Positions 2,618 through 59,155 of a DNA stretch of 64,000 nt are shown here, in pieces; positions within the stretch are counted from its first letter, which is position 1, and every line of letters starts with the position of its first letter. The translations under genes and the position numbers were made by a program. A model generated the notes under the pieces. That model made no database searches and had not been told where the DNA came from. It was given only the letters and a program-made list of their open reading frames with translations. This DNA is from a virus, in IMG/VR virus record IMGVR_UViG_3300008255_000111, positions 40,953 through 104,952 of that record, one strand, 5' to 3'.

Positions 2618-2633
2618 CTGCAATCGATTGCAG
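2618..2633. repeat. 16-bp palindrome CTGCAATCGATTGCAG, copy 1 (extends to 28 bp, 2612-2639)
   Basis: Exact match; flanks GTAGAG/CTCTAC. Confidence 0.95.
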
Positions 2634-2688
2634 CTCTACTGAGTAAAGCCCCCTAGAGAGGGGGCACTAGGTGGATTGACTAGATGGA

Positions 2689-3063
2689 CTAGGCGGCGCC
2701 CCACTTCTCAAGGGTGGTCTGGATGGAGTCGCGATGGAACTTGGGGCGCGTCTCAAATCGGTTGTTCTCACGCGTCGAGCATCGCATCACTGTACGATAG
2801 GACGCCACCTTGGGGGGGATTAAGTGAATCTCGAACACAACCCAATCCCAGCTCTGACTGATCGCAGAGCCCAAGATTTCGTACTCGAAGCCCGATAAGC
2901 TCTGCTCAAGCAGTCGGCGCGCTTCTGCGATGAGCAGATCGCGAGCATTGAGCCCGCTGATGAGGTCGTTCCAGACCTCCTCCCATTTCTTCGGGGCGAG
3001 CTTGATGTTTTGCTCCATGTACTCCAACTGATTCAGCTCAAACTCGTTCTTGGGGATTGCCAT
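2689..3063 (-). CDS. hypothetical protein
   Basis: 124-aa ORF with a GGAG RBS and an upstream promoter motif. Confidence 0.7.
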   Translation of the reverse strand: MAIPKNEFELNQLEYMEQNIKLAPKKWEEVWNDLISGLNARDLLIAEARRLLEQSLSGFEYEILGSAISQSWDWVVFEIHLIPPKVASYRTVMRCSTRENNRFETRPKFHRDSIQTTLEKWGAA

Positions 3064-3114
3064 TGTGTGCTCCGTTATGTTGTGTGGGCGACGTTGCCCC
3101 GTTTCGATAACTGA

Positions 3115-3142
3115 AGACTAAAACGCACTAGACTCGGCGCAA
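3115..3142 (-). promoter_or_regulatory. sigma70-like promoter TTGCGC-N16-TAGTCT
   Basis: Intergenic, with an A-rich AAAAAACGACA tract upstream. Confidence 0.55.
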
Positions 3143-3197
3143 GTGCTAAATGTCGTTTTTTGATTATTTTACTGACACTTAGCACCTAATTGGACGA

Positions 3198-3581
3198 TCA
3201 CTCATCATCAGCGTCGAGCCAACCTTCACCGCATGGTGATTGAACGAGGCCGGGCATGACCTTCAGCAGCTCGGGAGGGACAGGGCCGCGCTCATGGGCG
3301 AAGGCGCCTGCCTCGTTGATCATGATGTGGAGCTGCCATTGACAGACGACCTCACCGAGCTTGAGCGCGCCTTTGTCCGTGCGCCTCACTCGCATCAAGC
3401 ACATCGTCACCTCGGCGTCTACCTCCTCGGCAAACGCGCTGTCCAGCTTATCAGCAGCGTGATCCGCGCTCGCGTGCCAGCTCACGGCAGGGTCTTCATC
3501 AATAAAGATCGCATCATCGCCAAGCTGCGCGAAGCCCCAAAGCTCCTCAGAGCGCAGCTCGCTTAAGTATCCCATGAACAT
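3198..3581 (-). CDS. hypothetical protein
   Basis: 127-aa ORF, closely packed with neighbours. Confidence 0.65.
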   Translation of the reverse strand: MFMGYLSELRSEELWGFAQLGDDAIFIDEDPAVSWHASADHAADKLDSAFAEEVDAEVTMCLMRVRRTDKGALKLGEVVCQWQLHIMINEAGAFAHERGPVPPELLKVMPGLVQSPCGEGWLDADDE

Positions 3582-3591
3582 GATGTTGTCC

Positions 3592-4317: not shown

Positions 4318-4431
4318 ATCGCCGCTCCTTAATTGAGGTTTTGGGGTGAAGCTCGTTTGCACACAAAGACTTTGATGAACAAGACCTCGTGTCAAACGTT
4401 TTTCTATTAAAAACAACGACATGGGTGTTTT

Positions 4432-5625
4432 TTACCTCAAATCCCAAAACCTCATAGAGCGCGCCGCTATCTTAACTTTATCGTCAAGATGGTGAAGTAT
4501 CGAAGGCGACAACTCGAAAAAACACTTGAGCACAGTGCGCAACAATTTCTCCTGCTCAGGATATATCGCGTGCCCAGGCCAACAGTTCAAATGAAGGTCG
4601 ATGGTGTTAAAGACGGGAGAGCTGAGCCCGCCGCTTCGATCAGCGACAACGTAGTCCACATAAAGCGACGACACCTCGATGTTAGGCTCCAGCCTCAAGT
4701 TATGGTCCCAGACCTCGGAGCACCCCAGCAGGCCCCATGAGTCTACGTCGGGCCAGCCTACTATATCGCGAACGAGCTTGTCGGCTGAAGCTGACCTGAG
4801 CTTGTGATAACGAGACGCCATGTAAGCCCTGATTGACTGGATGGGGCAGAGCGAACAAAGCGCCAGGATCGAGTACAGGTAGGCCCGCTCGTCGGAGCCT
4901 GCTCGCTCGTTTGTTCGGATGGCGTCCACGACGTTTTCTTGAGCGGTCTGACAGCCTTCAACGCGATCCTGAGCCTCATCGTTCACAACACAGAAAGAGC
5001 CGTTGGGGTTGATCGCCCACTCAACGGGATCGTCGCAGTCTACTGGTACGGGATCAGTAGGGGCGCCGTCGCGCTGGATGGTGGGGCCAGCACTGTTGCC
5101 ACCAAAGCCATGATTGAGACACAGGGTGAGCATTAAGTGCGACTGGATGTCTCGCACGGTGAGCTGTTCAACGTAATGCCTGTTGGCGGTCTGATTCGGT
5201 TTATCATCGCCACGCCAGATGCTTTGTATCGCACGGCTCCTGATCTCACCAAAAGAGTAAGCCGAAGTCTGACCGTAAAAGTGCTGACTAAAGCCATGAA
5301 TGTCTGCATGAGCGTTCACGCTGCCGAAGGGGAACACCGACGAGTTGAGCGCGGCAGCGACCATTAACCAAAGGCGCGCCGCCTCGGTGTCGGTGAACTC
5401 CTTGTAGATGACCTTGTGGCGGCCCCTGTTACGGTAGCCTACCAGCCTGATGCGTCGCCTTGTCGCGGCATAGATGGTGCCGTCGAAGATGTCAGGCACC
5501 TCAAGGAAGACCTCGTTGTGCTCCGGCATGATGTATTCTGCGGCGGCTTGGTTGAGGTGCCAGCCATCAGGAAGCGGCTTCCTGTTTTCGATGGCTGACC
5601 TGATCTCTCCAAAGGTAGGGCTCAT
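4432..5625 (-). CDS. hypothetical protein
   Basis: 397-aa ORF with an ATGA overlap to the upstream gene. Confidence 0.75.
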   Translation of the reverse strand: MSPTFGEIRSAIENRKPLPDGWHLNQAAAEYIMPEHNEVFLEVPDIFDGTIYAATRRRIRLVGYRNRGRHKVIYKEFTDTEAARLWLMVAAALNSSVFPFGSVNAHADIHGFSQHFYGQTSAYSFGEIRSRAIQSIWRGDDKPNQTANRHYVEQLTVRDIQSHLMLTLCLNHGFGGNSAGPTIQRDGAPTDPVPVDCDDPVEWAINPNGSFCVVNDEAQDRVEGCQTAQENVVDAIRTNERAGSDERAYLYSILALCSLCPIQSIRAYMASRYHKLRSASADKLVRDIVGWPDVDSWGLLGCSEVWDHNLRLEPNIEVSSLYVDYVVADRSGGLSSPVFNTIDLHLNCWPGHAIYPEQEKLLRTVLKCFFELSPSILHHLDDKVKIAARSMRFWDLR

Positions 5626-5972
5626 CGCTTTACCTTCTCTTGCCGCACCAGCTCAGGGTGGCTCATCCTGAGCGCCACAATAAACTGAGGCACAGAGGTA
5701 CGATCGGGGAGGCGCTTGACCTGACCGACCACCCAAGAGCGGTCCACGACGTAATCTTCGTCATTCCACCTTGGACCCATCCTCATGGTGCTTTCGTACC
5801 AGTAGTAGAGCCGGACGATGGCCTCGTCTTCAGCTCCGCCATCGACCACCTCTGCGCAGCACATCTCGCAGCCTGGAGAGCCAAGCACAAGGTTCAGCTC
5901 GAAGTCTATGTCTTCATTAGATCGCATGTCTAAGTCCTTATTGCAGGAAACTGTGAAGATATGGAAGCTCAC
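5622..5972 (-). CDS. hypothetical protein
   Basis: 116-aa ORF with a GTG start and AGGAG RBS. Confidence 0.6.
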   Translation of the reverse strand: MSFHIFTVSCNKDLDMRSNEDIDFELNLVLGSPGCEMCCAEVVDGGAEDEAIVRLYYWYESTMRMGPRWNDEDYVVDRSWVVGQVKRLPDRTSVPQFIVALRMSHPELVRQEKVKR

Positions 5973-5995
5973 GGCGGCGCTCCTTTGAAGCAGTG

Positions 5996-6011
5996 CTGCA
6001 ATCGATTGCAG
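5996..6011. repeat. 16-bp palindrome, copy 2
   Basis: Exact match. Confidence 0.95.
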
Positions 6012-6076
6012 TCACGACGACAGCAGCTCAGGTGAGCTGCTGCCTGAATGTGCGCCACTGCGCGATGACTCCAAAA

Positions 6077-6104
6077 AGGCTAGCAAGAACAAAGCGGCAC
6101 GCAA
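6077..6104 (-). promoter_or_regulatory. sigma70-like promoter TTGCGT-N16-TAGCCT
   Basis: Intergenic, upstream of palindrome copy 2. Confidence 0.5.
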
Positions 6105-6132
6105 GCATTATGTGTCGCCTAATGGTGATTTG

Positions 6133-6999: not shown

Positions 7000-7023
7000 G
7001 ACCTACTCCTGTGGTGAACGAAC

Positions 7024-7052
7024 AAAAGCCCTAGACCGCCAAGTCTAGGGCT
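7024..7052 (-). terminator. putative intrinsic terminator
   Basis: AGCCCTAGAC-CGCCAA-GTCTAGGGCT hairpin with a T-run on the minus strand. Confidence 0.6.
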
Positions 7053-7076
7053 GCGTCGCTTGAGCTTCAATGGGAG

Positions 7077-8318: not shown

Positions 8319-8426
8319 CTTGACTCCCTATGAGTTAAAAGCGCCGCGCTCCAAAGCGCGCGGCGTTGAGTTGTGGCGAACGCCATGACAGAAAAACATT
8401 TACCAGCTACTATCAGAGTCGTCATC

Positions 8427-8903
8427 CTACTCGCAGATGCACGCGTCGGATTGGCGCTTTAGCTCTGCGTCAAGCGCGTCAACGCGCGCGGTGAGTTGGC
8501 GGATCTCATCGTCCTTCGCCTCAAGCTGCTCAATCAGTCCGTTTACAGCCTGGGCGGTGTAATAAGACTTGGGGAGCTTGAGCATGTTTTCAAGGTAAGG
8601 CTTGAACGCTTCAAGGGCCTTGGGCGGGGTCGCTTTGACAGCTTGTCGCATCGCCGCGTTGATGCTGAGCAAAAACGACTCATCGATCCTGGCCAGGGAG
8701 TCTTGGATGTAGCCCCAGGCGCGAGGATATACCTCGAACGTATCACCAATCGCGCACTGGCCGATCATGCTGCCCGTCTCATCGTTGACGACTGTGATCC
8801 CAAAGGTCGCCCCCACGTTTAAATCGGAGGTCTTGAAAGTGACATCGAGAGCGTTATCGCGGGCTGCCTCTTGGAACATCTCAAACAGCTTGGGAATGGG
8901 CAT
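8427..8903 (-). CDS. hypothetical protein with C-terminal coiled coil
   Basis: 158-aa ORF with an AGGAG RBS. Confidence 0.7.
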   Translation of the reverse strand: MPIPKLFEMFQEAARDNALDVTFKTSDLNVGATFGITVVNDETGSMIGQCAIGDTFEVYPRAWGYIQDSLARIDESFLLSINAAMRQAVKATPPKALEAFKPYLENMLKLPKSYYTAQAVNGLIEQLEAKDDEIRQLTARVDALDAELKRQSDACICE

Positions 8904-8940: not shown

Positions 8941-8956
8941 CTGCAATCGATTGCAG
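8941..8956. repeat. 16-bp palindrome, copy 3 (extends to 26 bp, 8936-8961)
   Basis: Exact match; flanks GTGAG/CTCAC. Confidence 0.95.
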
Positions 8957-8971
8957 CTCACCTTGGGGAGA

Positions 8972-9277
8972 CTAGGCGCACTCGCGGTCCTCGACATCCT
9001 CGCGAGAGAAGCCCGCTTGGCCGTCCACGAAAGTGAACACCGTTGTTTCGCCCGAGCTGAAGTTGTTATAGCCAAGCGACACTTGGCCCTCGCCATCACG
9101 ACGCGTCACTGTTGACTCGGGCTCGTCGCACCATTCCCAAGCTGCGGTTTCTTGGGACTCAAGATCGCCGCGCCCTCCATAGTAGCGGCAGGGCTGCCAA
9201 GTGAACGCGGGGAGGTGGAGGAGGAGTGAAACAAGCTCAAGCGTCGTCATCTTCGTGTACTGCATCATCGTCTCCAT
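8972..9277 (-). CDS. hypothetical protein
   Basis: 101-aa ORF downstream of the promoter-like motif at 9312-9339. Confidence 0.6.
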   Translation of the reverse strand: METMMQYTKMTTLELVSLLLHLPAFTWQPCRYYGGRGDLESQETAAWEWCDEPESTVTRRDGEGQVSLGYNNFSSGETTVFTFVDGQAGFSREDVEDRECA

Positions 9278-12118: not shown

Positions 12119-12880
12119 TCAGTTCGCTTCAGGGCTGTCAAGGGCCGGAGAGAGAACACCACAGCCATCATGGATCTCAAAAGGCTCCCAAGCGTAGCCG
12201 TCCTCGTCTTCGGTGTCGCTCGGCTGGTAGCGATAGCGCGCCACACACTTCACGAGGTAGGGGATCATGTCATCGTCATGCCATTCCGTCTCGCCATAGT
12301 ACAGGTACTTGGAGGGCGCGGCGAAGCGATGCAGACGCCAGGGGATCTTGACCGTCTCAAAGACATGAAGATCGACAGGCTCGACATCGTGCTCGAAGTC
12401 GTAAAGATACTGCTCAAAATCCCGCACCGCTTCCCTGATCGTCGTGCCACGAGCGCAATCATCGAGGTCTTCAACACCAAGGTTTGCGACGAGCGGCCCA
12501 GGCTCGACCTTTACCCTATCCAAGATGTCATCGACCAAGGGGTTTCCGGCCAAAGCAGTCAGCGCCTTACCAAGCCCTGTCGAGAGCAGGTCTTGTTGCT
12601 TGAGGTGCCTGTGCATGAGCAGCAGCATGTCATTAAAGACGCTGAAGACATCCTCATCGACGCCGTTACTGCCCCCTTTAAGCGGCTCGCTGTGCTGCAC
12701 AAGCAAAGAGCCGTGCTTGTCCACAAAGTCATAGGTGAAGCGGCATCCACCTCGAAGGAGCTGCCACTGAAGGAACAGGCCACGACCTTCCATCGAGAAG
12801 TCGTCCAGCTCGTTCGCAGGGGTAGTGACGGGCGCCCCAATGAGCGCGGCGAAGTTTCTCACAAGTTCAGCACTAGACAT
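12119..12880 (-). CDS. hypothetical protein
   Basis: Track ORF 12119..12946; start moved to ATG 12880 from the AGGAG RBS. Confidence 0.7.
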   Translation of the reverse strand: MSSAELVRNFAALIGAPVTTPANELDDFSMEGRGLFLQWQLLRGGCRFTYDFVDKHGSLLVQHSEPLKGGSNGVDEDVFSVFNDMLLLMHRHLKQQDLLSTGLGKALTALAGNPLVDDILDRVKVEPGPLVANLGVEDLDDCARGTTIREAVRDFEQYLYDFEHDVEPVDLHVFETVKIPWRLHRFAAPSKYLYYGETEWHDDDMIPYLVKCVARYRYQPSDTEDEDGYAWEPFEIHDGCGVLSPALDSPEAN

Positions 12881-12894: not shown

Positions 12895-12910
12895 CTGCAA
12901 TCGATTGCAG
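12895..12910. repeat. 16-bp palindrome, copy 4
   Basis: Exact match. Confidence 0.95.
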
Positions 12911-12932
12911 TTGGGTTGGGGAGGTCGATCCA

Positions 12933-18021: not shown

Positions 18022-19338
18022 TTAGTGTTTGATGATCAAGCCATTCATGGCGCGCGAGTAGGCGACGTACAGCAGCCTCGCCCTCATGTTGAGGTCGTAG
18101 CGCGTGGTGCCCATGATGTCGCTGTAATCCACAGCGCAATATTTAAAGCTGGAGCCTTGGCTCTTGTGGACCGTGCAGGCGAAGGGCGGCTTGAGCCACG
18201 CGAACTGCTCCTTGAGCGCGTAAAAGTCCTTCCAGTTGCGCTTCTTGATCGCCTTAGCTTTGAGTTGCGCGAGGGCCTTGTTGTAGGCGCCCATGTCCTC
18301 GGGCGCGACGGTCAAGACTTGGCAGGTGCTTCCATCATCAGCTTTGAGGCTCAGCTTCCAGACCGAGGCTGTGAAGTCAGGGCTGTGGAAGGGGCTGCGC
18401 TCAGCTTCCATGACCTCGACCTGCTGCTCGTTATACAGGACGATCGAGTCATTAACGACATACGACTCATTGGCCACAAGGCGCTCACCGACCAAGTAGT
18501 CTTCCACGTCGCCGCCGTATAGCTCACGGCGCACGACCCTGTTGAGCGCGTCAACTGTCCTGTTCGTGTATGCGATGATCTTCACGTCCTCACCAGCTCG
18601 CACAAGCTCCATGACGCGATCTTTAAAGGGTGCGCCTTTGTGCAGCTCGACGAAGGACTCAGGCGTCCCTCCAGCTCCAGGCAGCATATTCCTGTCCAAG
18701 ACGTTATCAATGAGCGCGTTGCGGGGCATGGCCACGGCGTCGCTGATGATGCCGTCATAGCGCATGATCTGACTTAGGGTTTTGCTCTCCACGTCGAATG
18801 ACTCGGAAAGCTCCATGCTGTCACTTACCGGGGGGAGCTGAAGCGGATCGCCCATGCAAATGACCTTGGTGCCATAAGCGGCGGCTGCGTCGGTGATGTG
18901 TGTCCACAGCTTAGTGTCAAGCATCGAGCACTCATCCACGACAAGCACCCTGAAGTTATGGACCTTGACGGCCCGGTGATTGACCTCAAAGGTCATCTCA
19001 CCAGAGGTCTTGTTCTTGGCGGGGCGAAGCCCTAGCAGGCTGTGGACGGTGTTATATTCTGGCGTCCACGACGTACTGGCTAGCTTCTTTCCATCGATGA
19101 GCGAGGTGGAGCCGAGCGCTTCTGCCTTACTGCCCATGCCAGCGAGCACGCCCACCGCTTTATGCGTCGGAGCGGTCATCGCCATAGAGACAGTAGGGAA
19201 CTCTCTAAGGACCGCTGCCACGGTGGCGCTTTTGCCTGTGCCAGCGTAACCGAAGACGCCGACGAACTTCTGGGCCGGATCTAGCATAAACTCCTGAAGG
19301 CGGAGCGCCGCCCCAAGCTGATCTGGGTTGAGCTTCAT
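18022..19338 (-). CDS. dda: Dda/RecD-like SF1B DNA helicase
   Basis: GYAGTGKS, TAPTHKAV, VVDECSM, GDPLQLPPV, TVHKSQGSSF and LLYVAYSRA. Confidence 0.92.
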   Translation of the reverse strand: MKLNPDQLGAALRLQEFMLDPAQKFVGVFGYAGTGKSATVAAVLREFPTVSMAMTAPTHKAVGVLAGMGSKAEALGSTSLIDGKKLASTSWTPEYNTVHSLLGLRPAKNKTSGEMTFEVNHRAVKVHNFRVLVVDECSMLDTKLWTHITDAAAAYGTKVICMGDPLQLPPVSDSMELSESFDVESKTLSQIMRYDGIISDAVAMPRNALIDNVLDRNMLPGAGGTPESFVELHKGAPFKDRVMELVRAGEDVKIIAYTNRTVDALNRVVRRELYGGDVEDYLVGERLVANESYVVNDSIVLYNEQQVEVMEAERSPFHSPDFTASVWKLSLKADDGSTCQVLTVAPEDMGAYNKALAQLKAKAIKKRNWKDFYALKEQFAWLKPPFACTVHKSQGSSFKYCAVDYSDIMGTTRYDLNMRARLLYVAYSRAMNGLIIKH

Positions 19339-19352: not shown

Positions 19353-19368
19353 CTGCAATCGATTGCAG
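19353..19368. repeat. 16-bp palindrome, copy 5
   Basis: Exact match, 14 nt upstream of the helicase ATG. Confidence 0.95.
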
Positions 19369-21500: not shown

Positions 21501-21764
21501 TCAACTAAAGTCCAGCGAGGACTCAGGCAGCTTGGTCGTCGTGGGTTCGCCAGAAGCGAGCACGGCGCTTGCTCCTGCGTTGACAACAGATGACTCAAAG
21601 CCTCGGGCGATCCTATCGGGATAGACCGCGATCACCACAACCCCTTCAAGCTCACCAAAGGGAACAGGCCCGGCATAATCGTCCCCATCAGGGTCAAACC
21701 CGCGCGACTGCCAGTTGTAGTAGGTGTTGCTTATTGCGTGATAGCCCCTGTTCGTCGCTGCCAT
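21501..21764 (-). CDS. hypothetical protein
   Basis: Start MAATN after a GAGGTG RBS. Confidence 0.6.
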   Translation of the reverse strand: MAATNRGYHAISNTYYNWQSRGFDPDGDDYAGPVPFGELEGVVVIAVYPDRIARGFESSVVNAGASAVLASGEPTTTKLPESSLDFS

Positions 21765-21776: not shown

Positions 21777-21792
21777 CTGCAATCGATTGCAG
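21777..21792. repeat. 16-bp palindrome, copy 6
   Basis: Exact match. Confidence 0.95.
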
Positions 21793-26201: not shown

Positions 26202-26217
26202 CTGCAATCGATTGCAG
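26202..26217. repeat. 16-bp palindrome, copy 7
   Basis: Exact match, lying between the promoter and the ATG. Confidence 0.95.
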
Positions 26218-27275: not shown

Positions 27276-27291
27276 CTGCAATCGATTGCAG
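27276..27291. repeat. 16-bp palindrome, copy 8 (extends to 32 bp, 27268-27299)
   Basis: Exact match; flanks ACAGGCTA/TAGCCTGT. Confidence 0.95.
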
Positions 27292-33875: not shown

Positions 33876-33891
33876 CTGCAATCGATTGCAG
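33876..33891. repeat. 16-bp palindrome, copy 10
   Basis: Exact match, upstream of the RNR gene. Confidence 0.95.
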
Positions 33892-40573: not shown

Positions 40574-41434
40574 TCAGAACGTTGTCACGATGTGAAGGGC
40601 GGCATTCCAGATGACCACGCTCTCACCAAGCCCATAGGGCGCGCCCAACGGATCGAGCCCAGCTTGAAGCTCGTAAGCCCGCTCACCTGCCGCCTGGAGC
40701 GTAAAGGCCGATGAGAACTTGGCAGGCTGATCACTGTTGAAGTCAAACGATGCCAGCTCGACCGGGGCGCCTGTGGTGTCGTAGAGCTTGACGAAGGCGG
40801 TCTGGCCGTCAACAAGGACGTTTGCTTCGATGTGGATCTCGTAGGTCTGCCCTTGAGCTTCGGCAAAGGTGTAGTTGGTTGCAGGATCAAGGCGAACGCG
40901 GCCAAGCACAGCAAGACCTTCCCCCTGATAGCCTGCCGTCACGAGCGGGATAACTTGGCGAAGCACATCCCCTTCAGTCACGCCACCGCTAGCGCCGCCC
41001 GCTGAGGTCTGGCCCGTCAAGACAAGCTGGCCGCCCATGATCCACAGCCGTTCGCCGTTGCGATAAAAGAGAAGCTGCGCGCTGTCTGAGTTCGGCACGT
41101 TGCCCGCAAGGATCTGTGGCACCAGGGAGTAGTTCTTGCTCGGAGGGTGCGGGATGTTCACATAGAGCCCGGCCCCGTCTGCAAGCAACAAAGACCCTGC
41201 TGCGATGGTGCCGATGAAACCCTTGGCGCCGTGAAAGAGCTTCATCTCGGGCCACGTCACAACGTAATCGACCCCAAACTCAATGTCATCCTGATGCACA
41301 AGCGCGAGGTTGCGGTGAGAGCGAGCTGAAAAGAGCATCTGATCGATAGAGTCGATCATCGACTTAAACTTGCCCCACCAGTTCACCTCGCCTTCTGATG
41401 GATAGGTGATGAGGGTTCTATTCGTCTGGGCCAT
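40574..41434 (-). CDS. hypothetical virion protein
   Basis: 286-aa ORF in the baseplate operon. Confidence 0.65.
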   Translation of the reverse strand: MAQTNRTLITYPSEGEVNWWGKFKSMIDSIDQMLFSARSHRNLALVHQDDIEFGVDYVVTWPEMKLFHGAKGFIGTIAAGSLLLADGAGLYVNIPHPPSKNYSLVPQILAGNVPNSDSAQLLFYRNGERLWIMGGQLVLTGQTSAGGASGGVTEGDVLRQVIPLVTAGYQGEGLAVLGRVRLDPATNYTFAEAQGQTYEIHIEANVLVDGQTAFVKLYDTTGAPVELASFDFNSDQPAKFSSAFTLQAAGERAYELQAGLDPLGAPYGLGESVVIWNAALHIVTTF

Positions 41435-43662
41435 TAGATCGCCTCCCTAGAGCCGTTAGGCAGTCTTCTGAAAAAATTGAAGGTTGGGCGATGAACGATC
41501 TCTCGCTCATCCACAGACAAGTTGCCCTCGCTGTCGATGAACGACTTAAGAAAGGCGGCACCTGTAAAGCCTGTGATCGTGATATTAACGCGCTCAAGCT
41601 CAAGAGACTCCAGCTCTTTATAAAGCTCGTCTAGATCGAGGTCACTGCCAAATGTCTTGCCCTTGATCAGCGCCTCAATCCTCGACTGGATGTCTGATTT
41701 GATCTTGAGCGGCTTGTCTCCTGGGATCTCCTGAAAGACCACGGTGAGCGTGGGAGCGACGAAGTAACCATCTCCAGATAGGACGCGAAACACCACGGAA
41801 GGCTCCTTGCGCGCATCAAGATACGCCTCAAGCGACTTCACAAGACCGTTGGGGGCCGCAGCATAGTAACCATCACTGTCGCGCGTCAAAATGGGCACCG
41901 TGATCAGGTTGGGGCCACACACGTCAGCGAAGACTCCATCAAGATGCTGCTCAAGCTCGGTGAGCTTATCAAGAGCGCCATTGTACGGGTTCACGAGGCG
42001 CTGCTGAAGGTCGTCAACCTCGTCATTGAAGCCGGACACCAACGGACCAACAAGCGCAAGAGCCGCGATCTCGTCCACAAGATCCGCCTGGGCGGTGGTT
42101 CGGCTCTGCGTCGCCGCATCAATCTGCGTCTCTTGCGATGACACCAGCGATCGTATCGTGGCCGTGCTCGCGATCACGCTACCCAACGAGTTGCTAACTG
42201 CCCCCGATGGTGATGTGACCTTTGAGACTTGCTCAGTGGCGCTGTCAGCCTGATCCAACAAGGCGATCAGTGAGCTGTACGTCGCTGGCGCGATCGTGCC
42301 GCCTGAGCCCACACCTACGATGGCCGACCTGATGCTGCTGAGCTGTGACTGAATCTGCGAGACGCTGTTGTCTGCTGTCGATACGCTTGTCTGGACAAAA
42401 GATGCCTCAGTAGAGAGGCCGTTTGACGCATCCCTAAGATCCACCACGTCGGAGTCGATCTGAGTGAGCGCTACATCTAGGGGAGAGCCCGCGTCAAGAT
42501 CATCTGCAATCGATTGCAGCGCTGCTCCAGTCGCAGTCAGCCGGGCTTGAATGTCAGTAGCAAGCGCAGCGATGGCCGTGTCGCTCAAAGCAATCTCAGC
42601 GAGCGCATCCACGATGAGGCCGCGAAGTTGCGTGATGATGCTCAAGCTCACCATGTCGTTATCGATCGAGGTCGCCAAAACAGCGCGCGCTGCCTCGACC
42701 GCCCCAAAGACAGGATCTCGATAGACGCCAACCAAGCCGTCAAAGTCACTCTTGACCACAACTGCGCCGTCGCTGTGCTTGGCGAGTGGGAGGCGCGCTT
42801 TTGTGATCACTGCCGTTTCTGGCGCCTTGCCGCCCCTCATGTCCGACGATTCTACCGTAAGAGGCAGCGGCGTCCCTAGCACGAGCAGATCGTCTGCCGC
42901 CCCTGTGATCTCACCTGCCGGAATGATGCCTTGCTCAGCTCGGGTAACTGCAAACTTCACAGCGATCGAAGCCCCATCAGGAGGGATGAGCCCAACGGCC
43001 CCGTCTCCAAACTCGATGTAGGGCGTGCTCGGCGTATAGGCGACTCGATAGACCGTCGTGTCTGTGTCAAGGAACGCGTCGCGCTCGGTCCACGTCACAC
43101 CATCGATCACAACCTCAAGCGATCGATATGCCAGGAACTCACCTACCGCCAAGCTGCCAAGGTTGAAGACCTGAAAAGGGGAGCCATCCGATCCAAAGGT
43201 CAGGTTCCTCGTCTCGCGCTGAGAGACATCGATCACCTGGGAAGCCGTTGAGCCCAGGGGGAACGTATAAGACTGCACAGCCTCATAGCGAAGGCCTTGC
43301 GGCCCAAGGAAGCCAAAGCCATTCGGCATGATCGCCGTTGAGACGGGGGCGGCCTGGGGTGTCACCACGAGCTGACCAGACGAAGGCACTGCACCTGCTG
43401 GGTTATAGGCGCGGGCCGCCGCATAGCGATCTAGCGCCTCTCGGCTTTGGATCGTGGGCAGGTAGACATCGTTGGCCTGCAAGTCCTGAAAGAAGTTGAC
43501 CAGCTCGGCCACATAGGACGCCTGATCCAAGAGCAGCGAGGTCAGATCATTGGTGAAGTCAAACGTCACACCCTTGGGCTCGTAGACCGCGCGCAGCTTG
43601 GATTTAACCTGCTGCACCAGGGTGTCAAAATCCTTACCCGCATAGAGTCGTTTAGTGGCCAT
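41434..43662 (-). CDS. baseplate wedge J/gp6-like protein with coiled-coil insertion
   Basis: KDFDTL, DVYLPT, YIEFGDGAVGLIPPDG, GGKAPET and AVVVKSDF. Confidence 0.85.
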   Translation of the reverse strand: MATKRLYAGKDFDTLVQQVKSKLRAVYEPKGVTFDFTNDLTSLLLDQASYVAELVNFFQDLQANDVYLPTIQSREALDRYAAARAYNPAGAVPSSGQLVVTPQAAPVSTAIMPNGFGFLGPQGLRYEAVQSYTFPLGSTASQVIDVSQRETRNLTFGSDGSPFQVFNLGSLAVGEFLAYRSLEVVIDGVTWTERDAFLDTDTTVYRVAYTPSTPYIEFGDGAVGLIPPDGASIAVKFAVTRAEQGIIPAGEITGAADDLLVLGTPLPLTVESSDMRGGKAPETAVITKARLPLAKHSDGAVVVKSDFDGLVGVYRDPVFGAVEAARAVLATSIDNDMVSLSIITQLRGLIVDALAEIALSDTAIAALATDIQARLTATGAALQSIADDLDAGSPLDVALTQIDSDVVDLRDASNGLSTEASFVQTSVSTADNSVSQIQSQLSSIRSAIVGVGSGGTIAPATYSSLIALLDQADSATEQVSKVTSPSGAVSNSLGSVIASTATIRSLVSSQETQIDAATQSRTTAQADLVDEIAALALVGPLVSGFNDEVDDLQQRLVNPYNGALDKLTELEQHLDGVFADVCGPNLITVPILTRDSDGYYAAAPNGLVKSLEAYLDARKEPSVVFRVLSGDGYFVAPTLTVVFQEIPGDKPLKIKSDIQSRIEALIKGKTFGSDLDLDELYKELESLELERVNITITGFTGAAFLKSFIDSEGNLSVDEREIVHRPTFNFFRRLPNGSREAI
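42504..42519. repeat. 16-bp palindrome, copy 12 (in-frame LQSIA in the coiled-coil insertion)
   Basis: Exact match. Confidence 0.95.
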
Positions 43663-43673: not shown

Positions 43674-44036
43674 TTAAATCTGGTTCACGCGCTGGCGCGT
43701 TGCATAAGTCTTGCCCCTAAACGACCAGACAACTTCGATATCAAGGTAGCGCACATCGCCCGATTGAATATACCCCGCCAACACCGCCTCGACAGTTAAC
43801 CGGGGCTCGTTGCGTGTCAGCCCAAGCGTGATCTCTCGACGCACGCTGGCTTTGACCAGCTCAGATTCATTCTCAAAGAGATAGGCATCAAGGCGTTGAC
43901 CGTTGCTATCACTATAAACTCGCTCCCCGAAGCGCTGGCTCAGAAACTGCGACACAGCTGAAGCGACAAGATCCTCATCAGCGGCAGCAACGGGAGCGCC
44001 CGCGTTTATCCTGAACGGGTAGGCAATTCCAAGCAT
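43674..44036 (-). CDS. gp25/GPW-like baseplate protein
   Basis: GIAYPF, FGERV, YLFEN and NEPRLTV. Confidence 0.85.
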   Translation of the reverse strand: MLGIAYPFRINAGAPVAAADEDLVASAVSQFLSQRFGERVYSDSNGQRLDAYLFENESELVKASVRREITLGLTRNEPRLTVEAVLAGYIQSGDVRYLDIEVVWSFRGKTYATRQRVNQI

Positions 44037-44052: not shown

Positions 44053-44068
44053 CTGCAATCGATTGCAG
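44053..44068. repeat. 16-bp palindrome, copy 13 (extends to 20 bp)
   Basis: Exact match; occupies much of the short gap between the spike stop and the gp25 RBS. Confidence 0.95.
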
Positions 44069-50653: not shown

Positions 50654-50959
50654 TCACTTGCCGCCGAAGATCCTGCCAAGCAGCTTGCTGAGTCCTTTGA
50701 ACTTGAGGCTTTCTTGCTCTGCTTCGTTTTGGCGGCGCTTATTGATCCAGTGCAGCATCAACGACCTCTCAGCGACGCTCATGTCAAGCACGTCATCAAG
50801 ACGCACACCAAGCTCAAGCGCAATCTCGCCTGAAGTCTCGATCACATCTGAGACGTGATCTGCGCTGCCATGAGGCATGAAGAATGAGGCGCCTGCGTAG
50901 TAGAATGCCTCGATCGCTGTGTGTGGACGCTTTTTTAAGTCTGGACCGACTCGGCTCAC
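50654..50959 (-). CDS. tail assembly chaperone C-terminal part (probable -1 frameshift extension)
   Basis: Lies in the -1 frame of the upstream chaperone and is open back through the T8 run; LDDVLDMSVAERSLML. Confidence 0.55.
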   Translation of the reverse strand: MSRVGPDLKKRPHTAIEAFYYAGASFFMPHGSADHVSDVIETSGEIALELGVRLDDVLDMSVAERSLMLHWINKRRQNEAEQESLKFKGLSKLLGRIFGGK

Positions 50960-51987
50960 ACTTCCAAGTCGGTAGGGTAAAAAAAAGCGGGGTCTTGCGG
51001 GTGAAGCAAGAACTCAAGGTTGGCGCCACACGAGTTGCACGACAGGTAAACGTTGTGATCGAAGTAGGGCTCATAGGAGGTGAACTCCTTGAAGATGAGA
51101 AGCCTCACCGCCTCGGGGAGCGTCAGCAGCTTGTCGATACTGTCGAGCTTAGACAAGACCAGCGCTCCGTCGTCTGTTTGCCCTCCCGTGTGGCGGCGGC
51201 CCAGATAGACCGTCTCGACCTCATCGTCTTTGTTGAGCTTAGGGAAGGTGATATTATCGATCCTGGCGACGCACGCTGATGTCACAATATCAAGGCTGCG
51301 CTCGTTTGGATCTGCGACATCTTGGCGGTTGGCCACTTCTTTCCTTCGGTGACGCTTGCGGTCCACAGCGGCGGCCTTCGTGCGACTTTCCTCCCTCAAC
51401 TGCTTGTCCACGTCAAAGAGGTACTTGGCGTCGTGCTGAGTCATCATGTGCCAAGTGACTTCCCAGACATAGCCGTGAACGTTGATGCTGGAGGTGATCG
51501 GCTCAAAGTGGTCCACGTCTAGCCCCTCGACGCCCATCTCCTCCATGTTCGCCGTGTAGCGCGCGTCGTGGCCACACTTCTCACATTCAATCCTGAACGT
51601 GTATTTGCTGCCCAAGCTCATCTGACGCAGCTTAAACAGCAGATAGGTGTAGTCCGCCAAGAGGATGCGCCCTTTAAGGATCTCTAGGATCTCGTGCCTG
51701 CTCGTATAGTTTCCAAAGGCGGCGATCGACTCTAGCAGGAGCCGATCGAGCGCCACGTCGCCAGCGATCTTGCCCGATGTAGCATCTGACAGGACCATAT
51801 CACCCTTACCTGTGATGCCTTTAAGGAGCACAGTCGGCAGGCGCTCGCCCTTATAGAGCGGCCCACCAAAAGGAAGCTCCACCGTTGCAAGGAAGTCTTT
51901 GCCGTCAAACTTAATCTCAGGCAGCTCACCGAGCGTCTTGGTGGCGTGCATCTCCAGCTTTTCGAGAACGTCTTTTTTATCACTCAT
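50956..51987 (-). CDS. tail/baseplate assembly chaperone (gp26-like, Zn-binding)
   Basis: DYTYLLFKLRQMSLG, CEKCG, CNSCG and C-terminal AFFYP; start MSDKK. Confidence 0.7.
   Translation of the reverse strand: MSDKKDVLEKLEMHATKTLGELPEIKFDGKDFLATVELPFGGPLYKGERLPTVLLKGITGKGDMVLSDATSGKIAGDVALDRLLLESIAAFGNYTSRHEILEILKGRILLADYTYLLFKLRQMSLGSKYTFRIECEKCGHDARYTANMEEMGVEGLDVDHFEPITSSINVHGYVWEVTWHMMTQHDAKYLFDVDKQLREESRTKAAAVDRKRHRRKEVANRQDVADPNERSLDIVTSACVARIDNITFPKLNKDDEVETVYLGRRHTGGQTDDGALVLSKLDSIDKLLTLPEAVRLLIFKEFTSYEPYFDHNVYLSCNSCGANLEFLLHPQDPAFFYPTDLEV
50979..50986 (-). other. putative -1 slippery site (GCT TTT TTT TAC)
   Basis: T8 run a few codons before the chaperone stop, with the -1 frame open. 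Confidence 0.55.
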
Positions 51988-52007: not shown

Positions 52008-52023
52008 CTGCAATCGATTGCAG
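52008..52023. repeat. 16-bp palindrome, copy 14 (extends to 20 bp)
   Basis: Exact match; flanks GA/TC. Confidence 0.95.
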
Positions 52024-52187
52024 TCCAACGTGGGGAGCTTTCAAGCTCGTAAATGGTGACTTCACCTTGGGCGGCCCGCTCACACACCTTGAGCCAAAGC
52101 TCGATCGCGGCGTCGCGCGTGCCTGCCTTGTGGTGAATAAAGCAACGACCACCCTCCTGCCAGAACACCTGGAAGCCTAAAGGCGTC

Positions 52188-53093: not shown

Positions 53094-53282
53094 CTACCCA
53101 ACAGGAAAGAGGGGCACAACCCATATTTTACCAAGGGCCGTTTTATTTTGGTCTTTCACCTTCTCCAAGTCCTCACTGTTCCAGACCGTGCTCAGCCCTG
53201 GACTTGCAACCAACAACGGGGTGTTGGCCGTCGTCGTGGTGACACTCTCCTCTTGCTCTTGCTTGTGTTCATCTGAGCGCAT
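53094..53282 (-). CDS. small hypothetical protein
   Basis: 62-aa ORF with a GAGGA RBS. Confidence 0.4.
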   Translation of the reverse strand: MRSDEHKQEQEESVTTTTANTPLLVASPGLSTVWNSEDLEKVKDQNKTALGKIWVVPLFPVG

Positions 53283-53931
53283 TCCTCACCTCTCTAAGTC
53301 TAAGCGGCGTCCCCAGCACAAACTCGCTAAAGCTGGAGATGCTGATGTCCAGCTCCGCCACGCTGATCTCCTCGCCACTTCCATCGAAGTCCTGAGCTGC
53401 TTTATAGCGCGTCGGCACGCAGCCCTTCAAGAGCCAGACACGAGCCGACCAGTCCAGCGCTGAGGCAGCGAGGCCCGTCGCCGCTGAGATCACTGGACGG
53501 TCGCGCTGGTTGCTCGCAAGCGCTGACACAAGAAGGCTTGAGACGATGCCTATCTTCTCGATGTCGCTTTTCCTACTGTCGATCTGACCGTGGATCTGGA
53601 TGAGCGCCAAGTCGCGACGATAGATGCCTCGACCATGCTGAGCTTTTCTGATCCACTGGTAGAACTCATCGTCGCCTGTGAGCACCCCTCGTTGAAGCGT
53701 CAGCGCATCGACCTTGCCACGCTTAATCACATCGATCGAGTAAGGCAAGTTGCCCGGCCTAACCTCCTGCGTCTCAAGCGAGATCGATGGTGCTGTGATC
53801 GACTTGAAGCCGATCTGCGGCGTCAGCGCCAGAAAAGGCACGTTGAGGTTGCTAAAGCCGCCTGTGCGCGTCACGTCAAGCAAGTGGAAGTTGAAGCTGT
53901 TGAAGTAGTCTTCTGATGTCGTGCGCGCCAT
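53269..53931 (-). CDS. tail tube protein 2 (gp19-like)
   Basis: FNFHL, GFKSITAP, LTLQRGV..GD.EFYQWI, WLLKGCVP.RY and ISVAELDI. Confidence 0.85.
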   Translation of the reverse strand: MARTTSEDYFNSFNFHLLDVTRTGGFSNLNVPFLALTPQIGFKSITAPSISLETQEVRPGNLPYSIDVIKRGKVDALTLQRGVLTGDDEFYQWIRKAQHGRGIYRRDLALIQIHGQIDSRKSDIEKIGIVSSLLVSALASNQRDRPVISAATGLAASALDWSARVWLLKGCVPTRYKAAQDFDGSGEEISVAELDISISSFSEFVLGTPLRLREVRNALR

Positions 53932-53955
53932 AGTCTCACCTTCAAATGATAAGGG

Positions 53956-53971
53956 CTGCAATCGCTTGCAG
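53956..53971. repeat. palindrome variant CTGCAATCGCTTGCAG, copy 15 (arms extend 53950-53977)
   Basis: One mismatch within the central 4 nt; flanks TAAGGG/CCCTTA. Confidence 0.9.
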
Positions 53972-53980
53972 CCCTTAAGA

Positions 53981-54523
53981 TCAGGTGGGGAGGCGGGAGT
54001 CGTCAACCGTGAACTGCTCAAACTTCAGATCGACCTCTTGCATAGAGGCGTCCTCGCTCGTGGCGTCAAGGTCAGACCCAGGCTTGGCCCTCACCACAAA
54101 CGCTTCGTTCACGCTGATGATTCGAGCCGCCTGTGGGTTGTAGGCGGGCTGGCGTTGACGAAGGTTGGGCGCCGTGTCTTGAGTGAACTGATAGATCGTA
54201 AGATCCATCCTGTATTCAAGCCTTTCGAGGTAGCGCTCGATCATCCTTAAGAACGTGGTGTCAAGCCTGACTACGCCGCGCGTCATGCTGATCTCGTTCG
54301 TGCTTAAGAGGCCGGGCTGGTGGATGGGGAAGGGGCTTAAGCCGTGGCGATACTCAATCTGCCCAACCGTATATTCAGGATAGGTGACTGACTGAAAGCC
54401 CGCCTCGGCCCCGTCTGGACCCTTGTTGAAGCCCACGGGATTTGAGGTGTTAGGGTCCGCGCTCACCGAGGTGACGTGGAACCTGAAGTTTTGCATGAAG
54501 TCGTCTGTGCTCGCGCGTGGCAT
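53981..54523 (-). CDS. tail tube protein 1 (gp19-like)
   Basis: NFRFHV, AGFQSVT.PE, IEYRHG, ISMTRGV and SDLDATS. Confidence 0.9.
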   Translation of the reverse strand: MPRASTDDFMQNFRFHVTSVSADPNTSNPVGFNKGPDGAEAGFQSVTYPEYTVGQIEYRHGLSPFPIHQPGLLSTNEISMTRGVVRLDTTFLRMIERYLERLEYRMDLTIYQFTQDTAPNLRQRQPAYNPQAARIISVNEAFVVRAKPGSDLDATSEDASMQEVDLKFEQFTVDDSRLPT

Positions 54524-54552
54524 TCAAGCCTCCTTTTGATCAGCTCTAAGAT

Positions 54553-55191: not shown

Positions 55192-55203
55192 GGATGCGCT
55201 CCT

Positions 55204-57858: not shown

Positions 57859-57891
57859 GCTCGCTTCTCCTTTCCTAAGTTGGCCTGAGTC

Positions 57892-58419
57892 TCATGATTT
57901 GTCGCTGAGGAAGTCCATGATCGCGGTGAGCGTCTTGGAGCCGATGCCGTCAAGGTCTTTGAGCATGTTGGCGTCGGCGTAGTCGCGCAGCTCCCTCAGT
58001 GTCTTCACGTTGTTATTAGCAAGCGTGTTCACGATGCGCTCAGAGAGTGCTGTGTCTGCGAGCGCGATCTCATCGTCCTCATCATCTTGGGGCTGACCTT
58101 GCTCATCAATCAAGACAACTTCATCCTCAGCCTCAACTAATGGCTCAAAGGTCGGCTCGGGGACAGCTGCTGATGCCTCAAACTTCTCCTCAGACGGCGC
58201 TGGAGGTGCAGGGGTGGCTTGTGGGGCGTCTTTGGCGATGACGCCCCTGAACGGCTGCACTAGGCCCCTCTTGCGATACCCTGTGAACACTCGGTCGATC
58301 ACAGGCACAAAGGGAGGATGCTTATGACTCACCGATGTCTGAACCTGCTGACCATTATCGTCAATCAAGGTGATCAAGATCGGGGTGCGGCCTACGACGA
58401 TCCATTTCTGCTGACTCAT
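57892..58419 (-). CDS. protein with C-terminal RNAP alpha-CTD-like (HhH) domain
   Basis: LADTALSERIVNTLANNNVKTLREL...LKDLDGIGSKTLTAIMDFL after an acidic/Pro-rich linker. Confidence 0.6.
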   Translation of the reverse strand: MSQQKWIVVGRTPILITLIDDNGQQVQTSVSHKHPPFVPVIDRVFTGYRKRGLVQPFRGVIAKDAPQATPAPPAPSEEKFEASAAVPEPTFEPLVEAEDEVVLIDEQGQPQDDEDDEIALADTALSERIVNTLANNNVKTLRELRDYADANMLKDLDGIGSKTLTAIMDFLSDKS

Positions 58420-58422
58420 CTA

Positions 58423-59124
58423 CTACTCCTTGGTGATTATGCGTCCTTGCGCATTGATTTGACGGGCGGCGACTTCGACAACCTCATCATGATCGTCGAG
58501 TTGACCCTGAACCTTATAACTAATGACATAACTACTAAAGCGCTGAAGCACATCAGCAAGCTCACTAGTATTCGTCATTCCTGTCCTGAAAAGCGCAAAT
58601 CGACCGCGCTCGCCTTGCGAGTCCAGCACCAAGAGGTCTGACTGATGCACAAGCCTCGACCTGACGAATCGAGCCATGATTTGTGCATCACGATGAAAGC
58701 GCGCTCTGACCTCAATCTCATAAAAGATGTTGGTGGGCTCAGCGTGGCGGCGCGTCACATAGTGCGAGGCTCCATGACGACCATCAACCTCAACGTCATC
58801 AGACTCGGGCGCCTTGTATCTGTACTTTCGACCGCTGATGTAGCCAAATCGCCTTGTCGGATCATCCTCGTCGGAGGTGTTGCGTATGTTGATGAAAGGA
58901 AGCGGCAGCGCTCCAAGCTCCTCTGGAGGCGTATTAACAGTCACCACAACGCGCTCATCAAGGCCGCTCCCGCACACGCCAGGAACTCCAACTTGGTTGA
59001 TTGGTTGGCTTAGAGCTGGGTTGTTCTGCGGGTTGGGGTAGGGCAAGAAGTCGGCCCCAAGGTTCGTCACCATCGCGTCGTCAAAGTGCGCCAACCAGTA
59101 GTACCCCTTCACCTCATCACTCAT
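58423..59124 (-). CDS. tail terminator/completion protein (gp15-like)
   Basis: Position before the sheath gene; LPFINI...DPTRR...PTNIFYEIEV. Confidence 0.6.
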   Translation of the reverse strand: MSDEVKGYYWLAHFDDAMVTNLGADFLPYPNPQNNPALSQPINQVGVPGVCGSGLDERVVVTVNTPPEELGALPLPFINIRNTSDEDDPTRRFGYISGRKYRYKAPESDDVEVDGRHGASHYVTRRHAEPTNIFYEIEVRARFHRDAQIMARFVRSRLVHQSDLLVLDSQGERGRFALFRTGMTNTSELADVLQRFSSYVISYKVQGQLDDHDEVVEVAARQINAQGRIITKE

Positions 59125-59139
59125 CACAGCCTCCATTTG

Positions 59140-59155
59140 CTGCAATCGATTGCAG
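59140..59155. repeat. 16-bp palindrome, copy 16
   Basis: Exact match, between a terminator and a GGAGG RBS. Confidence 0.95.

Follow-up and report, generated by a model that had tools for sequence, protein, structure and literature searches.

An evenly spaced palindrome recurring throughout a phage genome and in its distant relatives, a possible site of a Noc/ParB-like protein

A 16-base palindrome (TGCAATCAATTGCA) occurs about every 3.7 kb through the phage genome IMGVR_UViG_3300008255_000111, and its core, TGCAAT-NN-ATTGCA, recurs in distantly related phages, including three cultured ones, as an evenly spaced and apparently undescribed DNA site that may be read by a Noc/ParB-like protein. 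The core is found 20-45 times per genome in a deep clade of roughly 80-135 kb phages with 38-62% GC, to which belong the cultured Stenotrophomonas phage DLP5 (35 copies), Rhodobacter phage RcZahn (21 copies) and, in degenerate form, Vibrio phage SIO-2. The sequence and its even spacing are conserved within the clade, while the hairpin and the position before ribosome-binding sites are not.

Distribution of the palindrome in the analysed genome

The analysis was performed on a 64,000-nucleotide stretch of the genome (hereafter the window; positions 40,953 to 104,952 of the record) and extended to the whole 104,952-bp contig, termed G000, which is 81% complete. The initial annotation had listed 14 exact and two one-mismatch copies in the window, and this observation was confirmed, since all 16 coordinates are correct, the mismatched copies being GTGCAATCGATTGCAG at 36202 and CTGCAATCGCTTGCAG at 53956. 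Shuffled sequences gave an expectation of 0.03 matches and none of the shuffles reached 16. When genes were called independently (all of them on the minus strand), 13 copies were found to be intergenic and to lie 12-54 nt upstream of the next start codon, as had been claimed, while the other three (29135, 36202 and 42504) lie inside large genes. The genes that follow the copies include a Dda-like helicase, NrdJ, gp25-like, gp19-like tail tube and T4_baseplate-like proteins, as well as unknowns. The copies in the window are as follows (gene coordinates on the minus strand; fold energies are those of predicted RNA structures).

2618-2633: exact copy, intergenic, 22 nt upstream of the start of a 107-aa gene (2272-2595); flanks extend the palindrome by 6 bp (gtagag/ctctac); fold -19.6 kcal/mol, z -7.0
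5996-6011: exact copy, intergenic, bare, 23 nt upstream of the gene at 5622-5972
8941-8956: exact copy, 15 nt after the upstream stop and 37 nt before the gene at 8427-8903; flanks add 5 bp (gtgag/ctcac)
12895-12910: exact copy, bare, 14 nt upstream of the gene at 12119-12880, directly followed by the SD (AGGAG); fold -8.8 kcal/mol
19353-19368: exact copy, bare, 14 nt upstream of the Dda-like SF1 helicase gene (18022-19338)
21777-21792: exact copy, bare, 12 nt upstream of the gene at 21501-21764 and 32 nt downstream of a separate terminator-like hairpin
26202-26217: exact copy, bare, 30 nt upstream of the gene at 25092-26171
27276-27291: exact copy, 39 nt upstream of the gene at 26289-27236; flanks add 8 bp (caggcta/tagcctg); fold -23.9 kcal/mol, z -8.4
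29135-29150: exact copy inside the intein-bearing NrdJ gene (28593-33821), read in frame as LQSIA near residue 1557, between the RNR barrel and the TSCPD domain
33876-33891: exact copy, bare, 54 nt upstream of the NrdJ start
36202-36217: one-mismatch copy (outermost base) inside a 992-aa gene (34844-37822), read in frame as LQSIA
42504-42519: exact copy inside the baseplate-wedge gene (41434-43662), read in frame as LQSIA in the variable central region; the closest homolog carries LQSIA about 140 residues away, at a non-orthologous position
44053-44068: exact copy abutting the upstream stop codon (0 nt), 16 nt upstream of the gp25-like gene (43674-44036)
52008-52023: exact copy, 20 nt upstream of the T4_baseplate-like gene (50956-51987)
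53956-53971: one-mismatch copy (central position), 9 nt after the upstream stop and 24 nt before the gp19-like tail tube gene (53269-53931); flanks add 6 bp (taaggg/ccctta)
59140-59155: exact copy, bare, 15 nt upstream of the gene at 58423-59124 and 14 nt downstream of a canonical hairpin-plus-T-run terminator

The initial annotation had also warned that degenerate copies might have been missed, yet there are none: the full contig contains 24 exact, five one-mismatch and no two- or three-mismatch copies, and AATCGATT never occurs outside the motif. In G000, 25 of the 29 copies are intergenic, and 24-25 lie between a stop codon and the next SD. Ten of 29 carry copy-specific stem extensions, whereas the random expectation for 5 bp or more is 0.15%, and three copies, none of which is in the window, are followed by T-runs and constitute textbook terminators. 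The extended copies fold at -20 to -30 kcal/mol, while the bare 16-mer folds at only -5.1 kcal/mol, and no Rfam family matches. No conserved -35/-10-like signal was found upstream of the copies, only a CTCCCCA word and separate terminators, and the 1724-aa protein gave no RNA-polymerase-like hit, so that a promoter reading was rejected.

An adapter or assembly artefact, one of the conditions that had been set beforehand as a refutation, is excluded, since the copies sit in frame inside intact ORFs and the same motif occurs in many independent metagenomes and in three GenBank phage genomes. A host repeat was likewise not supported: a partial scan of 596 Gb of cellular genomes with the exact 16-mer (not with the looser 14-mer) showed only scattered single copies, at about chance level. 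The loss of copies at orthologous loci was proposed as a further refutation, but this criterion is not apt, because positions turn over while the motif and its density persist. No close relatives of G000 were found in IMG/VR when it was searched through the gene g024.

Conservation and spacing across the clade

Positions 3-6 of the motif (GCAA) are at least 98% conserved over 83 copies in six genomes, and the variation falls on the outer two and the central two positions, which is the pattern expected for two half-sites. The spacing of the copies in G000 is more even than random (CV 0.53, P<=1e-4 under both uniform and intergenic-gap nulls), with a maximum gap of 8 kb against 14-17 kb expected. 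This was reproduced in the motif-bearing IMG/VR genomes G001 (0.51), G006 (0.49), G008 (0.64) and G007 (0.71), as well as in DLP5 (0.47, P<5e-5). The identical 16-mer occurs in phages that share almost no genes and differ by 24 GC points.

Copies are written into coding sequence where no intergenic gap is available. The three intragenic copies of the window sit in three of its largest genes (742-1742 aa), always as LQSIA, and the closest homolog of g024 has LQSIA at a different place. In DLP5, 25 of 35 copies (71%) are intragenic and 15 of those read LQSIA or LQLIA. The hairpin is not conserved, as RcZahn copies are often imperfect palindromes without flank extension and the relatives G001, G002 and G003 show no such extension. 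Asymmetric variants occur in both orientations upstream of same-strand genes. On the other hand, G001, G002 and G004 show the same position next to the SD. The distribution among relatives is patchy, since the genomes L201 and L202 lack the motif, although L201 contains a variant palindrome (ATGCAAC-S-GTTGCAT) with the same layout.

The candidate reader

A full-length protein family is encoded in the IMG/VR genomes G002, G003, G004, G006 (three copies), G007 and G008, and by DLP5 (gp114) and RcZahn (gp1). A profile of this family hits Noc (7nfu) at E 1e-18 over positions 13-147, as well as ParB (6t1f), Spo0J (1vz0) and KorB (8qa8), which are its closest solved relatives. The gene lies just upstream of TerL (within about 0.4-0.7 kb) in G004, G007, G008, DLP5 and RcZahn. 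However, no ParB_N protein was found in G000, an incomplete contig that lacks the TerL block altogether, nor in the complete motif-bearing genomes G001 (21 copies) and G009 (six copies), so the candidate reader is not universal, unless it has been replaced in those genomes. G000 encodes only a weak DUF262-like (ParB-fold) 161-aa protein (window positions 1739-2224), which scores below the family cut-off, and no DUF262 was detected in G001, G006, G007, G008 and G009. At the place where CTP-binding ParB proteins have the arginine patch GERRxRA, the five aligned members read GGHHR, SGHHR, GGEHR, GGAHR or AGHGR. The AlphaFold model of the family is confident only for residues 20-100, its helical C-terminal half has pLDDT below 60, the putative DNA-binding region could not be modelled (mean pLDDT 58), and the model was too uncertain for a fold search. 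No ParA partner was seen.

Other potential readers were rejected. An O-like initiator as universal reader was rejected, because phrog_9773 is found only in G003 and the weakly O-like g138 of G000 shows no similarity to the initiator of L012, another motif-bearing genome. No DNA-site reader was found among the genes shared by G000 and G001 outside the tail module (MTase, HNH, endolysin and two membrane proteins), and g105 (HTH_23) and g009 (alpha-CTD-like) have no homologs in the other motif-bearing genomes.

Interpretation

It is proposed that the motif is a genome-wide recognition site on double-stranded DNA, whose core places two TGCA elements one helical turn apart, and which would be read by a symmetric (dimeric) phage-encoded protein. 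In this view selection keeps one copy roughly every 2.5-6 kb and avoids long gaps, so that the function would depend on coverage of the whole genome and not on individual genes. The most likely reader is the Noc/ParB-like protein which, by analogy with ParB, Noc and KorB, would load at each site and spread or bridge, and this could mark, organise or hand over phage DNA for packaging or replication, or dampen transcription. In the phage studied here the sites would be parked where they cost least, in the short gaps between stop codon and ribosome-binding site, and because the site also folds as an RNA hairpin, about a third of the copies would have been secondarily extended into strong hairpins. 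We give this reading a probability of roughly 0.55. What the analysis demonstrates is the sequence, the copy number, the even spacing, the in-frame coding copies, the clade-wide conservation and the co-occurrence with the Noc/ParB-like gene in most genomes, whereas it is only inferred that a protein binds the site, which protein it is and what the binding achieves. The array of L012, where the motif is repeated with a 22-bp period beside an AT-rich tract, also speaks for a double-stranded DNA binding site.

The initial annotation had offered two options, a site for a dimeric phage protein acting on the whole genome (with parS- or Noc-like logic) or a hairpin signal at gene junctions, and this interpretation was partly supported: the comparative evidence favours the former without proving it, while the hairpin holds only as a secondary feature of this lineage. 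The claim that the motif is undescribed holds for the literature library that was searched, where searches by sequence returned only unrelated primers.

An RNA-level intercistronic hairpin, acting as a terminator or attenuator, as a 3' or 5' stabiliser or processing site, or as the operator of a translational repressor that blocks the adjacent ribosome-binding site, would explain the position of the copies in G000 and the flanks that pair with different sequences at each copy, which is covariation, and an RNA-level role in this lineage is therefore real or at least plausible. As a general explanation it seems unlikely, given the weak fold of the bare motif, the intragenic copies of DLP5, the imperfect palindromes of RcZahn and the absence of extension in G001, G002 and G003. 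Moreover, the loop itself is palindromic, the stem is sequence-invariant while a separate hairpin family in the same genome shows the opposite pattern, and even spacing and in-frame coding copies are not expected of a junction signal. A role in DNA replication is about as doubtful. The sites could be bound by the phage replication initiator (distributed origins), or serve as hairpin signals on single-stranded DNA for the clade's DnaG-type primase and DnaB helicase, with even spacing limiting replicon or Okazaki-fragment length, as origin or priming sites would need. In L012 the array is placed inside an O-like/DnaA_N initiator gene, as in lambda ori. Motif copies lie inside the gene just upstream of the loader or DnaB in G001, G007 and G008, an overlapping double copy abuts g138 in G000 (outside the window), and the initiator gene of G006 holds an array of related TGCAAAC/GTTTGCA half-sites. 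In addition, the only module shared by all near-complete genomes is the replication module of DnaB, DnaG, SSB and RecA. Yet the initiators are too divergent to share one exact 16-mer specificity, the G007 initiator gene carries different tandem repeats, the dispersed single sites have no adjacent AT-rich unwinding element, and a 16-nt primase signal repeated through a genome has, to our knowledge, no precedent.

The least likely possibility is a selfish or recombination-driven element, i.e., a mobile REP/MITE-like mini-palindrome or a shared linker that spreads by gene conversion between co-infecting phages and has no function of its own. The identity of the 16-mer in otherwise dissimilar phages, its patchy distribution and its non-orthologous positions would fit this view, and the repeats of Cluster O phages are reported to mediate deletions. 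However, the copies inside genes keep the reading frame although 16 is not a multiple of 3, so they are not insertions, the spacing is more even than random in six genomes, and there are no target-site duplications. No transposase-type family appeared among 25 families of a Pfam survey of the genome, which comprised eight further ones, and the sharp exact/one-mismatch profile with no decayed copies argues for ongoing purifying selection.

Comparison with described systems

In the Noc-NBS, ParB-parS and KorB-OB systems, ParB-family proteins load at dispersed 13-16 bp palindromes and the function depends on coverage of the replicon and not on single genes. The motif shares with them the short palindromic site in many dispersed copies (29 on the 105-kb contig), and most motif-bearing phages encode a protein related to these readers, but the sequence is unrelated to parS, NBS or OB, the setting is a clade with at least one virulent member (RcZahn) and not a chromosome or plasmid, and the candidate gene sits next to the terminase.

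The 17-bp dyad repeat of Cluster O mycobacteriophages, TGTTCGG-NNN-CCGAACA (PMC4351075), is likewise present in more than 30 invariant copies per genome, in short intergenic gaps and inside genes, and is absent from the host. Those phages are not obviously temperate and also encode a ParB-like domain protein, a beta-clamp and an HNH endonuclease, and the function of the repeat is unresolved, its authors having doubted a transcriptional role. The sequence, the host phylum and the phage group differ, and that repeat is confined to one tight cluster, whereas the motif described here spans hosts from Alpha- to Gammaproteobacteria; even spacing and a preferred reading frame were not reported there. 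The stoperators of Cluster A mycobacteriophages (PMC9283540; PMC4351075) are also dozens of near-identical short sites, many in short intergenic gaps, bound by one phage protein, but they are asymmetric, oriented with transcription, bound by a monomeric immunity repressor and belong to temperate phages, while the present motif is palindromic, orientation-free and occurs in the virulent RcZahn. The start-associated sequences (SAS/ESAS) of Cluster K (PMC3203893) lie immediately upstream of the start codons of many genes, some with inverted repeats, and are of unknown function, yet SAS are asymmetric, include the ribosome-binding site and are conserved at orthologous genes, while here positions turn over and relatives carry most copies inside genes.

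The lambda-type origin iterons inside the O initiator gene resemble the L012 arrangement, in which three to four copies lie in the linker of the O-like gene, but in G000 and most relatives the copies are single and dispersed and the initiators are not conserved between motif-bearing genomes. A functional analogy only can be drawn with the DNA uptake sequences of Neisseria and Haemophilus, short self-marking words kept at roughly kilobase density and often paired as an inverted repeat that doubles as a terminator, which are bacterial, non-palindromic as single units and read by the competence machinery.

Implications

Dispersed dyad repeats in phage genomes, such as those of Cluster O, have stayed unexplained for a decade. 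To these the present case adds one core sequence conserved far more deeply than the phages' proteins, across host classes, together with a statistically even spacing and copies written into coding sequence, both of which point to a function that needs coverage of the whole DNA molecule. Since the motif is present in cultured phages (DLP5 and RcZahn) whose Noc/ParB-like gene sits next to the terminase, the question is accessible at the bench. A more far-reaching, and rather unlikely, possibility that remains compatible with the data is that a large clade of phages including virulent members marks its own DNA with evenly spaced loading sites for this protein. This would be a distributed self-recognition system coupling genome-wide coating or clamping to packaging, or to replication or silencing, conserved with the same core across hosts from Alpha- to Gammaproteobacteria under selection strong enough to force the peptide LQSIA into many proteins. 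If the ParB-like link holds, it would extend ParB/Noc/KorB-type biology from chromosome and plasmid maintenance to the infection cycle of lytic phages, and it would also supply a ready sequence signature for recognising this clade in metagenomes.

Copies of the palindrome and their location in the contig

The observation of the initial annotation, that a 16-bp palindrome is dispersed through the analyzed DNA, is correct, since the window contains CTGCAATCGATTGCAG at all 14 positions that had been listed, together with one-mismatch copies at 36202 and 53956, while dinucleotide-preserving shuffles expect 0.03 matches. The IMG/VR viral contig from which the window is taken (bases 40953-104952; the contig is termed here G000) is linear, 104,952 bp long and 81% complete by CheckV. 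The whole contig has 24 exact and 5 one-mismatch copies and none with two or three mismatches, and AATCGATT occurs in it 26 times and never outside the motif. Nearly all genes are located on the minus strand.

With simple ORF-based gene calls made for this study, 24-25 of 29 copies lie in short gaps between minus-strand genes, despite the fact that 87% of the sequence is coding. The 13 intergenic copies in the window lie 12-54 nt upstream of the next start codon, usually just 5' of the Shine-Dalgarno sequence, and many are also only 0-34 nt from the preceding stop. The genes that follow encode, among others, a Dda-like helicase, an intein-bearing class II ribonucleotide reductase, gp25-like, gp19-like tube and T4_baseplate-like proteins, and unknowns. 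No single functional class is marked. The three intragenic copies in the window sit in three of its largest genes (NrdJ, a 992-aa protein and the 742-aa baseplate wedge) and all are read in the same frame as LQSIA. The spacing of the copies is more even than chance, with a CV of 0.53 against about 1.0 (P<=1e-4 whether sites are drawn uniformly or from the 81 intergenic gaps) and the largest gap of 8 kb against 14-17 kb expected.

Ten of 29 copies have flanks that extend the palindrome by 5-11 bp, with a different sequence at each copy, whereas the random expectation is 0.15%. These extended copies fold as RNA at -20 to -30 kcal/mol, and three of them, all outside the window, are followed by T-runs and are textbook intrinsic terminators. 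The bare 16-mer, however, folds at only -5.1 kcal/mol, and several bare copies lie 14-32 nt downstream of a separate canonical terminator. The contig also contains a second repeat family, i.e., hairpins with a fixed AAAUGAA loop and copy-specific stems upstream of genes (for example ccgagcAAATGAAgctcgg, at L196:320-345, a stretch of G000 outside the window), which shows the reverse conservation pattern to that of the palindrome. The Pfam survey of the whole contig revealed peptide deformylase, ChaB, thymidylate kinase, 2'-5' RNA ligase/LigT, several DNA methyltransferases and a beta-clamp-like protein, which is an aquatic-phage-like accessory set, and no close cultured relative was found through the sheath protein. 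Further features of the window are as follows:

1739-2224, minus strand: a 161-aa protein with a weak DUF262/GmrSD_N (ParB-fold) match of 30.2 bits, below the 33.2-bit cut-off, the only ParB-superfamily signal in this contig.
8957-8975, 12911-12925, 52024-52040 and 53972-53995: flanks upstream of the motif in sense orientation with the word CTCCCCA, enriched 6-15 nt upstream of the motif (5 of 24 intergenic copies against 0.4 expected), which could pair with the downstream Shine-Dalgarno sequence or be a separate signal.
28593-33821, minus strand: the class II ribonucleotide reductase (NrdJ, 1742 aa), which carries inteins, with LAGLIDADG_3 and an intein splicing domain around residues 386-711 and a second Hom_end homing-endonuclease domain near 1152-1216, followed by a C-terminal TSCPD domain.
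57892-58419, minus strand: a 175-aa protein with an RNA polymerase alpha C-terminal-domain-like region (PF03118, 28.6 bits), encoded just upstream of the tail sheath gene.

Distribution in cellular and viral genomes

In a partial scan of one genome per species of 185,579 prokaryotes, the exact 16-mer appeared only as scattered single copies, about what chance gives for 596 Gb. In IMG/VR, in contrast, it is multi-copy in many contigs, which share no nucleotide similarity with G000 and only a few proteins at 25-34% identity. Counted within two mismatches over the full records of these motif-bearing genomes, there are 21 copies in G001 (134 kb, complete), 5 in G002 (48 kb, 38% GC), 11 in G003, 10 in G004, 24 in G006 (106 kb, 61% GC), 24 in G007, 32 in G008 and 6 in G009. 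G001 and G003-G008 share a replication and recombination module composed of DnaC-like loader, DnaB, DnaG primase, gp32-like SSB, SNF2 helicase, RecA-like, RuvC, Cas4-type exonuclease, phrog_17202 and TerL. G002 shares with them the portal, terminase, protease and one other family, while G000 shares the tail module with G001 and lacks the block that would hold the replication and terminase genes.

Through phrog_17202 the clade reaches cultured phages. Rhodobacter phage RcZahn (MW677529) has 21 copies of TGCAAT-YA-AYTGCA, against about 0.1 in shuffles, Stenotrophomonas phage DLP5 (NC_042082) has 35 copies, 26 of them exactly TGCAATCAATTGCA or its complement, and Vibrio phage SIO-2 has a degenerate version. 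Yet, two relatives at 37-38% baseplate identity (L201 and L202) lack the motif. L201 (Ga0100403_1000032), whose baseplate protein is 38% identical, has its own palindrome, ACATGCAAC-S-GTTGCATGT, in the same kinds of places; of the copies at L201:6231 and L201:9762, one lies before an SD and ATG and one is at the tip of an 11-bp copy-specific extension.

Conserved and variable features of the motif

Over 83 copies in six genomes, positions 3-6 (GCAA) are at least 98% conserved, whereas the outer two and the central two positions vary. In DLP5 none of the 26 exact copies has a CG centre (all are CA/TG), while 26 of 29 G000 copies have CG; the central dinucleotide seems free to drift, or is shaped by host restriction or methylation. 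Hairpin strength is not conserved, since G001, G002, G003 and RcZahn show no flank extension and many RcZahn copies are imperfect palindromes. Position before ribosome-binding sites is not conserved either: in DLP5, 25 of 35 copies are inside genes, 15 of them in the LQSIA/LQLIA frame, and the closest homolog of the baseplate protein carries LQSIA about 140 residues from where G000 has it. Even spacing, however, is conserved, with CV values of 0.47 in DLP5 (P<5e-5), 0.49 in G006, 0.51 in G001, 0.64 in G008 and 0.71 in G007, all of them significantly below random expectation.

Candidate proteins recognizing the motif

The survey of G000 proteins found few DNA-binding candidates, i.e., an HTH_23 protein, an alpha-CTD-like protein and the weak DUF262-like protein at window 1739-2224, none of which is shared with the other motif-bearing genomes. 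One family stands out in the wider clade, a 260-310-aa protein present in G002, G003, G004, G006 (three copies), G007, G008, DLP5 (gp114) and RcZahn (gp1). Its profile is closest to Noc (E 1e-18), ParB/Spo0J and KorB, and its gene lies just upstream of TerL (within about 0.4-0.7 kb) in G004, G007, G008, DLP5 and RcZahn. Noc, ParB and KorB are protein families that load at dispersed 13-16-bp palindromes. No ParB_N hit was found in G000, but the absence is uninformative, because the contig lacks the terminase block. Three points count against this candidate. The complete genomes G001 and G009 lack the family; their motif copies are fewer or more degenerate, which is suggestive but rests on few genomes. 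Furthermore, the CTP box of the family reads GGHHR, and its C-terminal half could not be modelled. The identity of the protein reading the site, its binding and the consequence of such binding are inferences made from sequence alone.

A second lead is replication. In L012 (IMGVR_UViG_3300037722_001341) 3-4 motif copies at a 22-bp period, together with an AT-rich tract, form a lambda-ori-like arrangement (L012:2283-2415) inside the linker of a 439-aa O-like (N-terminal)/DnaA_N (C-terminal) initiator gene. Copies lie inside or beside the gene upstream of the loader or DnaB in G000, G001, G007 and G008. The O-like/DnaD-like initiator gene of G006 (G006:74280-74400, i.e., L209:14280-14400) contains an array of GTTTGCAC/GTGCAAAC half-sites, including TGCAAACGGTTTGCA, which resemble the dispersed motif but are distinct from it. 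However, the initiators are not conserved between genomes.

Comparison with described repeats and interpretation

The nearest described phenomenon is the 17-bp dyad repeat of Cluster O mycobacteriophages, which has 34 invariant copies, both intergenic and coding, and the function of which is unresolved; those phages also carry a ParB-like domain protein. Stoperators and start-associated sequences differ from the present motif in symmetry, orientation and positional conservation. In the literature search no paper was found that contains the core sequence in a phage context, and the RcZahn paper does not mention it.

The initial annotation proposed either a site for a dimeric phage protein acting on the whole genome or a hairpin signal at gene junctions, and this interpretation is partly supported. 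An RNA-level junction hairpin explains the anatomy of G000 but not the clade-wide features, while a mobile mini-palindrome is contradicted by in-frame coding copies, by the absence of decayed copies and by the even spacing. A host factor is unlikely, given hosts from two proteobacterial classes and no enrichment of the 16-mer in the partial scan of cellular genomes, although this rests on the exact 16-mer and not on counts of the looser core in host genomes. A site that keeps its sequence and spacing, is tolerated in either orientation and is forced into coding sequence is best read as a signal on the DNA molecule as a whole. The intergenic parking and the hairpin extensions in G000 and G004 then look like economy and secondary co-option.
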